This document shows, one piece after another, positions 23,760 to 33,373 of a stretch of 37,692 bases of DNA (within the stretch, counting starts at the first letter, position 1; every line of letters starts with the position of its first letter). The DNA is from a virus. Taxonomy: Duplodnaviria > Heunggongvirae > Uroviricota > Caudoviricetes. The notes below the pieces were generated by a model. It did not search any database. It saw only the letters and a program-made list of their open reading frames with translations, and had not been told where the DNA came from. The stretch covers positions 1 to 37,692 of the IMG/VR virus record IMGVR_UViG_2645727775_000019. One strand, 5' to 3'. Position numbers and translations under genes: made by a program.

Positions 23760-23788
23760 AAAGTAAAAGCCCCGCACGATGGCGAGGC
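23760..23788 (-). terminator. Intrinsic terminator-like hairpin downstream of cargo gene X
   Basis: Minus strand GCCTCGCCATCGTGCGGGGC followed by TTTTACTTT. Confidence 0.5.
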
Positions 23789-23854
23789 TGTTAATTCTTT
23801 GTCGACCAACAAAGCTATGGCGACGATATCAGATTTACATGAAATATAAGCGTT

Positions 23855-24670: not shown

Positions 24671-25423
24671 TTATCTTGTCACTTTTCTCAATTGTGTCTC
24701 TGCATATGCTTCTTCCTGCCAGCACTTTGTAACCAGTTTATCAATAACATCTGCATATCCTTTGTACCACTGATAATCCGTCAGGTCCGGTACCAGCTTC
24801 TGGACATGATGCCGCGCCAGTGTGGTTGGTAAACGGCTAAACCGGTTTCCATTGCAACGCCCACAAATCTTATAAACAGGCGTGCCATGAAGCCGGGTCC
24901 TTTTTTCATCCAGGACAATACCTTTACCCTTACACCCTCTGCACGCTGTGCTGACTTCTCCCTTACCATGACAATGCTGACATAGTTCCTTCACCCACTC
25001 CTCCTTGATAACAGATTCACCGCTTCTGGAGTGTTTCACCACTTCGCGCAATACATTATGAAATCCAGTACCTGCACAATGCTCACAGCGAGCCTTACTT
25101 GCCGCAGACCTGGAATAATCAGCAAAGGCAAAATTCACAAGGTAAGGGATGATCTGTAACCGGGTTTCTTCACTCAATTTGTTCAATGTCGGGTTATCCA
25201 GTGCCATCGCGTAATTGAGCAGACCTTCAATCGCAAATTGAGGATCCTGAACACCAACTTTTGCCAGGAATAAGGCAAACCCAAGCGGTGCTTTCGACTG
25301 CACCATCCCCTGCGCAGCCATCACATCCGTAATCGTTAAACCACCTGAGCCTGTCGCCGGTGCGTCATCGCTCAATTTTGGAGATTTTGGGGAGTAATAT
25401 TTTGGTAAGGCTTCAAGGTTCAT
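24671..25423 (-). CDS. Late-gene antiterminator Q (lambda-Q family, QuuQ-like)
   Basis: YYSPKSPKLSDDAPATG...TDVMAAQGM, FAFADYSRSAA, Cys-rich zinc-binding region and C-terminal ...RKVTR parallel lambda Q as recalled; ATG with GGAG site, 250 aa. Confidence 0.8.
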   Translation of the reverse strand: MNLEALPKYYSPKSPKLSDDAPATGSGGLTITDVMAAQGMVQSKAPLGFALFLAKVGVQDPQFAIEGLLNYAMALDNPTLNKLSEETRLQIIPYLVNFAFADYSRSAASKARCEHCAGTGFHNVLREVVKHSRSGESVIKEEWVKELCQHCHGKGEVSTACRGCKGKGIVLDEKRTRLHGTPVYKICGRCNGNRFSRLPTTLARHHVQKLVPDLTDYQWYKGYADVIDKLVTKCWQEEAYAETQLRKVTR

Positions 25424-31293: not shown

Positions 31294-31968
31294 ATGAAAA
31301 CAATCCATGACATCCGGCGGTCTAACGCCAGAAAACTGAGAGATGGTGTTGGCGGGAATTCTTCCTTTGCCACTATGATTGATCGCGAGCCAACCCAGAC
31401 CAGCAGGTTTATGGGAGATGGTGCTACTAAAAATATCGGTGACAGCATGGCACGACACATCGAAAAATGTTTCGACCTACCTGTCGGATGGCTCGATCAA
31501 GAACACCAGACAACGAACATCACAAAAAAACCTGATGTTTCAATCACTAATAAACAAATCACATTAGTCCCTGTCATATCATGGGTACAGGCCGGAGCAT
31601 GGAAAGAAGTTGGATATTCTGAGGTTGATTTGAGCACAGCAGAAACGTATCCCTGCCCTGTACCCTGTGGGGAAATGACTTATATCTTGCGGGTGATAGG
31701 TGATTCAATGATTGATGAGTACCGCCCGGGAGACATGATTTTTGTCGATCCTGAAGTACCTGCCTGCCACGGTGACGACGTTATTGCATTGATGCACGAT
31801 ACAGGTGAAACCACCTTCAAAAGGTTAATAGAAGATGGGACACAGCGTTATCTCAAAGCGTTAAACCCAAACTGGCCTGAGCCTTACATTAAGATCAACG
31901 GTAATTGCTCTATAATTGGTACAGTGATTTTCTCAGGAAAACCAAGAAGATACAAAATCAAAGCCTAA
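31294..31968 (+). CDS. cI: CI-like repressor (HTH plus S24 autopeptidase domain)
   Basis: 224 aa; C-terminal GDSM Ser and FKRL Lys dyad intact. Confidence 0.85.
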   Translation: MKTIHDIRRSNARKLRDGVGGNSSFATMIDREPTQTSRFMGDGATKNIGDSMARHIEKCFDLPVGWLDQEHQTTNITKKPDVSITNKQITLVPVISWVQAGAWKEVGYSEVDLSTAETYPCPVPCGEMTYILRVIGDSMIDEYRPGDMIFVDPEVPACHGDDVIALMHDTGETTFKRLIEDGTQRYLKALNPNWPEPYIKINGNCSIIGTVIFSGKPRRYKIKA

Positions 31969-31980
31969 TCAATGTTTATG

Positions 31981-32004
31981 AACCTGCTTCGGCAGGTTTT
32001 TTTA
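31981..32004 (+). terminator. Intrinsic terminator after cI
   Basis: AACCTGC-TTCG-GCAGGTT hairpin followed by TTTTTTTAT. Confidence 0.7.
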
Positions 32005-32007
32005 TAC

Positions 32008-32036
32008 TTGACAATGTACCTTTGAGATACATAATG
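32008..32036 (+). promoter_or_regulatory. pL-like promoter with overlapping operator-like half sites
   Basis: TTGACA, 16-17 nt spacer, CATAAT/ATAATG; TGTAC half-sites similar to OR inside and beside the spacer. Confidence 0.5.
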
Positions 32037-32212
32037 TACCCAAGAGAAACAACGAACAGGCAGGACGCCCACGAAGTAGCCGCCTGGGGCATATGAAGTC
32101 CAGGATGATTCGTTGAGTCATGTTGTGCCACTAGGCACTCATGTTAAAGCAGGTGTATGAAATGAAAGTCCAGATTTTAAACAATAACTGTGAAGTCGTT
32201 TGGGCGTAAAAC

Positions 32213-32419
32213 ATGACCGCGCGTAGACCAAGGGAGGAAAAAGTGGGAATAGTTAGAAATCAAGCAGATATATTGAAAATCAGCTCTGAATTACTTGGAG
32301 TTTTGAAAAGTGAGCTCACCGCACATGGCATCGAGCCCACTGACGAAAATTTAAGATGGGTTTTGTCGATTATTCAACAATCACTCAAGCCCAGCCTCAG
32401 CAAACTTTTTATCGAGTAG
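32213..32419 (+). CDS. Hypothetical small protein (68 aa; alternative GTG start at 32243 with GGGAGG site)
   Basis: AT-rich; Arg-rich N-terminus MTARRPREEK; first gene after pL-like promoter. Confidence 0.4.
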   Translation: MTARRPREEKVGIVRNQADILKISSELLGVLKSELTAHGIEPTDENLRWVLSIIQQSLKPSLSKLFIE

Positions 32420-32572
32420 TGCTTCGAACTTATCGTAAAGCTTGCTTATGTCGTCTATCGGGTTTTCTGACGTACTGTAATTTTTATCTGATGTCATGGC
32501 AGCAGTCTGATATGCAGTGTGAGTCTTAACCGATAGTTGGAATAAATAAAGAATTTTTTCTTCTTTGGTCAT
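32381..32572 (-). CDS. Hypothetical small protein (63 aa), convergent and overlapping with previous
   Basis: ATG with AAGGAAA site; MTKEEKILYLFQLSVKTHTAY...; 39-nt 3' overlap with the plus-strand small gene. Confidence 0.4.
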   Translation of the reverse strand: MTKEEKILYLFQLSVKTHTAYQTAAMTSDKNYSTSENPIDDISKLYDKFEALLDKKFAEAGLE

Positions 32573-32682
32573 AACTATTTCCTTCTTGGCTATATGAAAA
32601 CACCAAGATACCACCGAGCCTGAAGTGGTGAAAAGACAGGCACATAACAGCTAAGTATTTTCAACCAAAGAGAATCCTTAGC

Positions 32683-32960
32683 GTTGTGGTGAATGCGGCT
32701 CAGCGCACGCGGGTTAAGGTTGAGGCTGACAGTCGACCTTCTGTGGATACCCACCCGTCTGGTGTGCAACCTTCGCCAGGCACCGGGAGGCACCCGGCAC
32801 CACAACTTTATGCTGTGTGTAGTCCTGGCGGTACCAGTTTGTACCCTTGCTTCCGGCTGGTACCGTCCTTTTTACAAAACAGAGAAGAGCATCACCGGAC
32901 GACGGGCTCATAACCCAATCCATCCGGGCGGCTGCCACCGCAGGTGTTCTTCTCTGTTTT
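32683..32960 (+). other. GC-rich non-coding segment with multiple long-range inverted repeats (candidate structured RNA or cis-regulatory element)
   Basis: GTTGTGGTG/CACCACAAC (9 bp), CGGTACCAG/CTGGTACCG (9 bp, then CCTTTTT), AAACAGAGAAGA/TCTTCTCTGTTT (12 bp); translations in all frames are not protein-like. Confidence 0.3.
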
Positions 32961-33010
32961 GTGGAGAAACTAATCGGCCTTGCAGGGTCGATATGATGAG
33001 GAGCAGCAAA

Positions 33011-33373
33011 ATGGCTAGCGAACGCAGTACTGATGTGCAGGCATTTATCGGGGAGCTGGACGGCGGCGTATTTGAAACCAAAATCGGCGCAGTTCTCAGT
33101 GAAGTCGCTTCCGGTGTGATGAACACGAAAACCAAAGGTAAGGTCTCACTCAACCTGGAAATCGAACCATTTGATGAGAACCGTGTGAAAATCAAACACA
33201 AACTCTCATATGTTCGCCCGACTAACCGCGGGAAAATTTCCGAAGAAGACACCACCGAAACGCCGATGTATGTCAATCGCGGTGGTCGCCTGACTATTCT
33301 GCAGGAAGACCAGGGACAGTTACTGACTCTTGCCGGTGAACCTGACGGAAAACTCCGCGCAGCAGGTCGTTAA
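33011..33373 (+). CDS. yfdP: YfdP-like prophage protein
   Basis: 120 aa from MASERS with AGGAG site; the ORF-track N-terminal extension is non-protein-like. Confidence 0.6.
   Translation: MASERSTDVQAFIGELDGGVFETKIGAVLSEVASGVMNTKTKGKVSLNLEIEPFDENRVKIKHKLSYVRPTNRGKISEEDTTETPMYVNRGGRLTILQEDQGQLLTLAGEPDGKLRAAGR

Follow-up and report, generated by a model that had tools for sequence, protein, structure and literature searches.

A probable STnc100-type RNA and a tRNA-like junction in the early-left region of SfV-type prophages

Introduction

STnc100 and PasD are prophage-encoded RNAs that are located near Q or just downstream of stx2B, and one of the stx2B-side copies overlaps EcOnc27. PasD is associated with Hfq, as is EcOnc27/sRNA103 of O157:H7 (PMC12711010), which overlaps an STnc100 copy. 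Here we describe what is very probably another structured non-coding RNA of this kind, located in a G+C-rich segment (positions 32683-32960, plus strand) of a 37,692-nucleotide stretch of DNA from a virus of the Caudoviricetes (IMG/VR record IMGVR_UViG_2645727775_000019). The whole stretch is referred to as the window, and its coordinates are used throughout. Positions 32620-33010 are a 100% match to Shigella phage SfV, and this version of the element is called SfV-type. Two modules can be distinguished: module A (32683-32872, plus strand, 190 nt) is a predicted RNA of about 190 nt, and module B (32874-32962, plus strand) is a three-way junction in the leader of the next gene, yfdP.

Two other described systems are relevant to this locus. 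The first is sRNA-17 of E. coli K1 strain RS218, encoded by an mEp460-like prophage; it is 193 nt long by 5'/3' rapid amplification of cDNA ends (RACE) and was confirmed by Northern blot (PMC7719688). It is more abundant in stationary phase and repressed by ArcA, its deletion gives phenotypes, and its authors reported no Rfam homologue (PMC7719688). The second is the put element of phage HK022, about 70 nt with two stem-loops, which is present after PL and again after PR (PMC9378689). A 2026 survey of the STnc100/PasD family mentions neither sRNA-17, nor an early-left location, nor a pseudoknot.

A first-pass annotation, made from the sequence alone, had described the segment as highly structured and non-coding, and had offered a small RNA, a put-like antitermination element, a transcription terminator or a cluster of protein-binding sites as possible functions. 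It proposed RNA folding, covariation among homologues and an Rfam/Infernal search as checks.

Evidence for a Structured RNA

The three inverted repeats noted in the first-pass annotation are present at the positions that it gave. The first (32683-32691 / 32798-32806) is a perfect 9 bp, and the second (32829-32837 / 32857-32865) is also a perfect 9 bp, which extends to a 13-bp stem (32827-32839 / 32855-32867) when G-U pairs are counted. The third (32874-32898 / 32938-32962) covers 25 nt with 84% complementarity; it was correctly placed, but its perfect Watson-Crick run is 15 bp and not 12 bp. The 278 nt contain seven nine-mer inverted-repeat seeds, as compared with a mean of 0.16 in 500 shuffled sequences, none of which reached seven. 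The plus-strand fold of 32661-32975 has a free energy of -129.6 kcal/mol, as compared with -104.9 +/- 4.9 for dinucleotide shuffles (z = -5.0), and none of 100 shuffles was as good. These controls, together with the missing codon signal described below, bear out the view that the segment is highly structured and non-coding.

Homologues support the helices by compensatory changes in both modules. G-U pairs are kept far more often than A-C mismatches, 189 versus 33 in the core helices of module A and 23 versus 2 in the helices of module B. From this excess, the fold is assigned to plus-strand RNA, and not to duplex DNA or the antisense strand. The bias fits an RNA and lends no support to the cluster of protein-binding DNA sites. 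The annotation had also treated the segment as one unit. However, it consists of two separable modules: in megablast comparisons, Stx2c phages, mEp460 and the cdtI phage share 32826-33010 but not the core that precedes it.

Module A and the STnc100 Family

At the gathering threshold, no Rfam family matches the element region. A permissive scan, however, matches STnc100 (RF02076) at 32661-32876 on the plus strand over the entire model (positions 1-206 of 206), with 39.5 bits and an E value of 7.9e-07. With the same model, canonical STnc100 loci score 68.6-131.4 bits, and the SfV-type copies in ST64B and phiES15 score 35-41 bits. A covariance model of our own, R1, which was built from 41 diverse copies, detects 32683-32807 with 64.2 bits and finds 130 copies across the loci that we fetched. 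At least 120 IMG/VR contigs contain an exact match to the most conserved stretch of the family, the 20-mer CCGGGAGGCACCCGGCACCA; the window has a single copy, even if three mismatches are allowed.

The core of module A (32683-32806, about 125 nt) is closed by helix P1, formed by GUUGUGGUG (32683-32691) and CACCACAAC (32798-32806), which covaries in the family (UA 33 / CG 28; GC 50 / AU 31). After a junction AAU (32692-94) comes hairpin hp1, UGCG-GCUCAG-CGCA (32694-32707), which was placed from alignments. Hairpin P4 (GUCUGGUG / CGCCAGGC, 32757-32781) changes on both sides at eight of its nine pairs among 94 distinct sequences. Its loop carries the 3' strand of a pseudoknot, in which AAGGUUG (32716-32722) pairs with CAACCUU (32767-32773), as found by a per-sequence duplex search. 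Hairpin P5, CCGGG-AGGCA-CCCGG (32783-32797), directly adjoins P1 on its 3' strand; it is the signature of the family and hardly varies. It is invariant in the 94-sequence set, and in Flotzy and Kp4866-6 it reads GGUGG-AGGCA-CCACC, so that the stem covaries and the loop is kept.

A single-stranded linker (32807-32826), unpaired in the predicted centroid fold, separates the core from a predicted intrinsic terminator (32827-32873). The latter has a 13-bp stem, a 15-nt loop and C-UUUUU at 32868-32873, and would form the 3' end of the RNA of about 190 nt; the hairpin with a U-run that was first proposed as a terminator is therefore upheld. ST64B, phiES15, phiNP, Flotzy and Kp4866-6 have other hairpins at this position, each with a T-run. 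Within the linker, UGCUGUGUGUAGUC (32811-24) is conserved in SfV, ST64B, phiES15, phiNP, Flotzy and Kp4866-6, and it is a candidate seed or Hfq-binding stretch. The linker UGCUGUGUGUAGUCUU is common to the SfV-type and is kept even in phages such as phiNP, which has another 5' domain, or together with a different terminator. The hairpin and U-run at 32827-32873 are without annotation in the SfV GenBank record. That record lists a "putative rho-independent terminator" at its positions 25034-25066, which map to 32561-32593 of the window, and no hairpin was seen there.

The covariation is well above the controls. In the 94 distinct sequences, 87.9% of the cells of P1, hp1 and P4 are paired, as compared with 76.1% for shuffled columns and 40-46% for slid partners, and there are 348 double-change cells versus 121 expected. 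The pseudoknot, which is not part of the Rfam STnc100 model and was added in this analysis, had to be scored sequence by sequence with shuffled and non-cognate controls, because the register of the loop shifts between lineages and aligned columns are unsuitable. Across the family, there are 54 distinct duplex types with a mean contiguous run of 7.0 bp, as compared with 4.4 bp with shuffled loops, and 82% of the types reach at least 6 bp versus 27% for non-cognate pairings. Examples of paired changes are CCAGUC/GACUGG, AUCAGCG/UGCUGGU, CUGGUGU/ACACCGG, GCUAGGC/GUCUAGC and, in phiES15, AAGGCUGG/UCAGCCUU.

Taken together, module A resembles STnc100 and PasD in its core, with the GGUGAAU junction, hp1, P4, the CCGGG-AGGCA-CCCGG hairpin abutting P1 and the pseudoknot. 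It also resembles them in the order of core, some 20-30 unpaired nt and intrinsic terminator, in a total length of about 190-200 nt and in its occurrence in enterobacterial lambdoid prophages. We have little doubt that module A is a structured non-coding RNA of the STnc100/sRNA-17 kind, and a small RNA, one of the functions first suggested, fits the first two thirds of the segment, given the STnc100 match and the ends that it has in common with the RACE-mapped sRNA-17.

There are several differences from canonical STnc100 RNAs. The hp1 of the SfV-type is GCG/CGC-based, whereas canonical members have CCCCC/GGGG (CCCCC-UNNGCG-GNGGGG, or else CCUUUC-UAAGCG-GAAAGG, with double changes at four of the five pairs), and the linker carries a different, subfamily-specific conserved sequence. 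The SfV-type also has an extra helix (CGGGU 32710-32714 / ACCCG 32753-32757), read directly from the alignment; the phiES15 version is CGGGG...CCCCG, a compensatory change from U-A to G-C. Canonical copies are in the late region near Q, tRNAs, stx or lysis genes, whereas the SfV-type is part of the early-left operon, with cI before it and yfdP after it. Finally, among 46 canonical representatives, 24 have a sigma-70 promoter directly ahead of P1 with 8 or more of 12 matches, whereas none of seven SfV-type representatives reaches 8 of 12 or rises above the shuffled background, and the best candidate there scores 6 of 12. In 35 of 53 representatives, a terminator T-run is located 32-82 nt downstream of the core. 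The SfV-type thus belongs to a known family as a variant below the threshold, and its early-left setting with no promoter of its own is unusual.

Two side observations concern the core and its relatives. A local competitor for the pseudoknot strand AAGGUUG, CGACCUU (32734-32740), is present in the window and has analogues in two other SfV-type lineages; its pairing has a mean run of 5.7 bp in the SfV-type versus 3.7 bp in canonical members, a comparison that rests on 12 rows. The SfV-type core may therefore have a two-state fold. At some canonical loci, between three and five complete STnc100 units, each with promoter, core and terminator, are repeated in tandem with a period of about 255 nt (L025 342-1038, L033 1725-2343, L070 4379-5461 and L016 2324-3351), and the units of an array differ from each other in linker and pseudoknot sequence.

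Relationship to sRNA-17

The sRNA-17 sequence was identified from the supplementary alignment of the original paper, where it begins GUUGUGGUGAAUGCG / GUUGUGGUGAAUGCGCAGGC and ends GGUACCGCUCUUUU (PMC7719688), and it was then located in an Stx2c phage (L006 2355-2547). It is exactly 193 nt long there, and its equivalent in the window is 190 nt. Both loci have the order cI, element, tRNA-like junction and yfdP. The P1 strands are identical (GUUGUGGUGAAUGCG ... CACCACAAC), the terminator hairpin is near-identical with the same stems, and the same module B follows.

The interiors of the two cores, however, are only loosely alike, with 117 identical positions in 201 aligned columns. sRNA-17 has its own P5, CCGG-AGAUCAGCA-CCGG, and its own linker, AGCCACUGCUUUGG, and neither Rfam nor R1 detects it. 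Its 5' end is located some 10 nt beyond the -10 of a promoter (TTGACA/TACATT) that abuts cI within operator-like dyads, and the SfV-type has no such promoter. Judging from the outer helix, the terminator and the locus, sRNA-17 is a diverged sibling of the SfV-type element.

In the K1 lysogen, yfdP rose from 0.49 reads to 47 and yfdR from 0 to 8.5 when sRNA-17 was replaced (PMC7719688). The near-silence of yfdP in the lysogen and its rise in the absence of sRNA-17 fit an efficient terminator that shields yfdP.

The tRNA-Like Junction of Module B

Module B is built on a 20-bp outer stem (32874-93 / 32943-62), which encloses arm 1 (32895-32927) and arm 2 (32928-32941). Its minimum free energy is -45.5 kcal/mol (z -7.3). 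RNAalifold on 13 lineages gives 32 pairs with compensatory changes in eight of them; arm 1 is conserved and arm 2 is variable.

The tip of arm 1, CGGG-CUCAUAA-CCC (32903-32916, plus strand), is identical at 14 of 14 nt to the anticodon stem-loop of E. coli initiator tRNA-fMet, with the CAU anticodon and the three G-C pairs, as aligned with K-12 metY. The arm-1 sequence GACGGGCUCAUAACCCAAUCCA, a 22-nt pattern with two variable positions, occurs in at least 120 viral contigs. In Klebsiella phages, GZ7 among them, a homologue is located directly after tRNA-Asn and tRNA-Arg and downstream of Q; it is closed by GGCCUG...CAGGCC, a 6-bp acceptor-like stem, which is followed by ACCA. The junction is like tRNA-fMet in the tip of its anticodon arm and like phage tRNAs of the ileZ-argN-argO type of array in the position of its GZ7 homologue. 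It is unlike a tRNA in that it has no D arm and no canonical T loop, and in the window a 20-bp A/U-rich stem with no CCA replaces the acceptor stem. ARAGORN predicts no tRNA gene in the window, and the Rfam tRNA model (RF00005) gives no match at E <= 10. As judged from these features, module B is a probably tRNA-derived three-way junction supported by covariation.

Modules A and B have related neighbors elsewhere. STnc100-type units occur beside tRNA genes, either as three tRNAs and then STnc100 or as three STnc100 units and then a tRNA (L010 8044-8560, minus strand; L025 342-1253, plus strand), and in Pantoea phage PA-1 (L134 1500-1620) a tRNA-like arm is followed by a GUUGUGGUGAAU start. This adjacency indicates that the two modules keep company. 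Directly after the junction, GGAGAAAC (32963-32970) is conserved in 13 of 13 early-left lineages examined, and it is followed by a lineage-specific small hairpin ahead of the yfdP ribosome-binding site.

Genomic Setting and a Proposed Mechanism

On the plus strand, the order is cI (31294-31968), a strong promoter-like site, a 68-aa open reading frame (ORF), the segment and yfdP (SfV orf32, 33011-33373), which is the first conserved early-left gene downstream and is followed by yfdQ, yfdR, xis and int. A convergent, AT-rich ORF is located on the minus strand between the 68-aa ORF and the segment. The G+C content is 0.55-0.57 in the segment versus 0.36-0.43 directly upstream. The promoter-like site, TTGACA-16-CATAAT (32008-32035, 11 of 12 matches), is just after cI and is presumed to be PL; it is the only sigma-70 site in 31900-33100 and hence the only one upstream of the element. 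SfV has Q, and N is not annotated. In every phage examined (SfV, ST64B, phiES15, 118970_sal3, the Stx2c phage and e14), the element is flanked by the repressor gene on one side and by the first early-left genes on the other.

On balance, we think it probable that the two modules act as one early-left unit, consisting of a small RNA with a terminator that insulates yfdP through xis-int, and then a tRNA-like leader; this judgment covers the whole two-module mechanism as a single claim. As no promoter belongs to the SfV-type itself, we infer that transcription comes from the cI-adjacent one. It would start at 32008-32035 and stop at the module A terminator, which would release the small RNA, and the 5' end of this RNA would need processing of the longer transcript. 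By analogy with the Hfq-bound relatives, the RNA might depend on Hfq and act in trans through the unpaired UGCUGUGUGUAGUC. The terminator would shield yfdP-yfdQ-yfdR-xis-int unless it is read through. Module B would be transcribed only by those polymerases that pass the terminator, and would form the 5' leader of the yfdP mRNA. There it may be a processing or stability signal, as the 20-bp stem is a plausible substrate for RNase III and the tRNA-like shape a plausible signal for RNase P or RNase E.

Several points weigh against this mechanism. The STnc100 score is below the curated gathering threshold of 47 bits. There is no adjacent promoter, about 640 nt that include the convergent ORF lie between PL and P1, and both the expression and the 5' end of the SfV-type are predictions. 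No site complementary to the linker occurs within the window besides the element itself. The rise in yfdP in the K1 lysogen is confounded, as a resistance cassette replaced sRNA-17 and the cassette promoter could read into yfdP. The copy in e14 of K-12 has lost P5, and so not all copies are under selection. Processing of module B by RNase III or RNase P is purely something that we infer. Finally, an invariant, pseudoknotted domain of 125 nt seems too elaborate for a base-pairing small RNA, and the core probably has a further function.

Alternative Explanations

The rival that survives best is one that we nevertheless consider rather unlikely. The element could be a conditional, riboswitch-like attenuator, in which binding of a metabolite, or of a factor from the host or the phage, to the core sets terminator read-through into yfdP...xis-int of lambdoid phages that lack N, with the RNA of about 190 nt as a by-product. 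The layout would suit such a device, as the domain is aptamer-like, with a pseudoknot and junction nucleotides that hardly vary, and an intrinsic terminator begins about 20 nt beyond it. The location would also suit it, as the element is at the head of the early-left operon, the Stx2c/mEp460-type starts at a cI-adjacent promoter flanked by operator-like dyads, SfV has Q and no annotated N, and the local competitor for the pseudoknot strand is found in three SfV-type lineages. However, no conserved antiterminator pairing connects the core with the terminator, and terminators are swapped freely while core and linker stay constant. Canonical relatives form promoter-to-terminator units in tandem arrays, which would be odd for attenuators, and relatives accumulate as Hfq-bound RNAs. 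No Rfam riboswitch was found at E <= 10 beyond chance-level matches, and the small number of rows behind the competitor signal also counts against the attenuator. This explanation is more probable than the put-like one considered below.

It is quite improbable that both modules are decaying relics, that is, a dead small RNA gene and a dead tRNA gene carried beside yfdP. The e14 copy, with its two lesions in the otherwise invariant P5, the failure of ARAGORN and the Rfam tRNA model to recognize module B, and the loss from the SfV-type of the promoter of canonical members are what such decay would produce. Both modules, however, have compensatory changes across phages of Escherichia, Salmonella, Cronobacter, Klebsiella, Citrobacter and Pantoea, the signature stretches are invariant, 2780 of 5426 complete E. 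coli genomes carry a match to the element, and the homologue sRNA-17 is expressed and has deletion phenotypes.

The put-like reading is very unlikely, although it was among the first suggestions. Here, the nascent RNA would bind the transcribing RNA polymerase so that it passes terminators, in the way of HK022 putL, and would replace N/nut. As in HK022, a structured RNA encoded in cis follows the leftward early promoter in a lambdoid phage without annotated N; terminators come after it, and the sRNA-17 variant begins at +1 of the cI-adjacent promoter, as putL does. Size and fold differ, as a pseudoknot of about 125 nt with many helices stands against some 70 nt with two stem-loops, and the sequences are not similar. 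R1 finds nothing better than E 3.5 in the HK022 immunity region (L007, L008), including PL and PR. A search of the whole 37.7-kb window with filters off gives a single copy, with the best other match at 10.7 bits and E 0.5, so that there is no putR-like copy on the PR side. Furthermore, relatives end at their own terminators as discrete RNAs and occur as stand-alone tandem units, and the K1 lysogen expresses sRNA-17 while yfdP reads are about zero, which indicates termination and not read-through.

Coding Potential and the e14 Copy

The first-pass annotation saw no plausible protein in any frame. This is correct as regards codon periodicity, but both strands have frames without a stop, up to 106 codons long, and some of them have been annotated. 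The ORFs called here include a frameshifted pseudogene (PGAP), ymfH in K-12, and members of PHROG 3651 (E 8e-50, with the 74-aa minus-strand ORF 32714-32938) and PHROG 33599 (E 1e-15, with the plus-strand ORF 32847-32996). The PHROG matches arise because near-identical nucleotide sequence has repeatedly been called as ORFs. The open frames of the segment have no match in Pfam. Between SfV and ST64B, the three codon phases have 20/16/17 substitutions (p = 0.78), with indels of 1, 5 and 20 nt. The frame that is open differs among SfV, e14, phiES15 and the Stx2c phage.

The empty Pfam search, the even phases, the shifting frames and the helix-compensatory changes speak against a protein gene. That one of the long frames (the 74-aa minus-strand ORF, the plus-strand ORF or the ymfH equivalent) encodes a small phage protein is the least probable explanation of all, in spite of the annotated ORFs, the PHROG matches and a minus-strand frame that is open in both SfV and ST64B, since the indels are not triplets, the changes compensate RNA helices and the canonical relatives are cores of about 110 nt in 250-nt promoter-terminator units.

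In K-12 MG1655, the ymfH gene (e14; L129 2501-2859) is annotated on top of a copy of the entire element with 90% identity, and xisE-intE come directly after it. In P5 of this copy, one nucleotide of the loop is deleted and a G of the stem has become A. Probably, ymfH is not a protein gene and the e14 copy is decaying. A search of the literature on ymfH returned nothing relevant.

Implications

The element has a match in 2780 of the 5426 complete E. coli genomes, mostly at 95-99% identity. As its terminator is downstream of the repressor-proximal promoter and ahead of xis-int, an effect of the element on the excision and induction of the prophage is plausible. There is also a practical consequence for annotation, as a widespread non-coding element has been labeled as a hypothetical protein, a frameshifted pseudogene, YmfH and two PHROG families, and these calls are probably spurious.

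The comparison joins three literatures, those on sRNA-17, on the SfV-type element and on the STnc100/PasD family. In the literature that we searched, there is no description of a pseudoknot common to the family, of a link between sRNA-17 and STnc100 or of the tRNA-fMet-like junction, and a search on prophage initiator-tRNA mimics returned nothing relevant. The pseudoknot and the near-invariant core suggest that these "sRNAs" contain a folded domain with a partner of its own. The mimic of the tRNA-fMet anticodon arm is a conserved feature, and it is tied to tRNA arrays in other phages.

We would go one step further only tentatively, and the idea is doubtful. The core could be a sensor or factor-binding domain that gates entry to yfdP...xis-int by means of its terminator, in place of N/nut in lambdoid prophages that lack N. 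Together with the tRNA-arm mimic as a decoy or processing signal, it would then make up a two-part RNA control of the prophage excision genes in roughly half of E. coli genomes. The mimic could have VapC or another anticodon nuclease, RNase P or the 30S P site as its partner, and a decoy role of module B is speculation.

Other Small RNAs in the Window and in Related Phages

The window and its relatives contain other small RNAs. The only Rfam family above the gathering threshold in the window is the Hfq-binding RNA isrJ (RF01393), which is full-length at 23766-23839 on the minus strand, with 64.9 bits against a threshold of 37. In the Stx2c phage and in ST64B, a C4 antisense RNA (83.6 bits) and isrK (64-67 bits) are located on the far side of the immunity region (L006 125-313 and L003 19-95, both on the minus strand). 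These phages thus have several known small RNAs around cI/cro.

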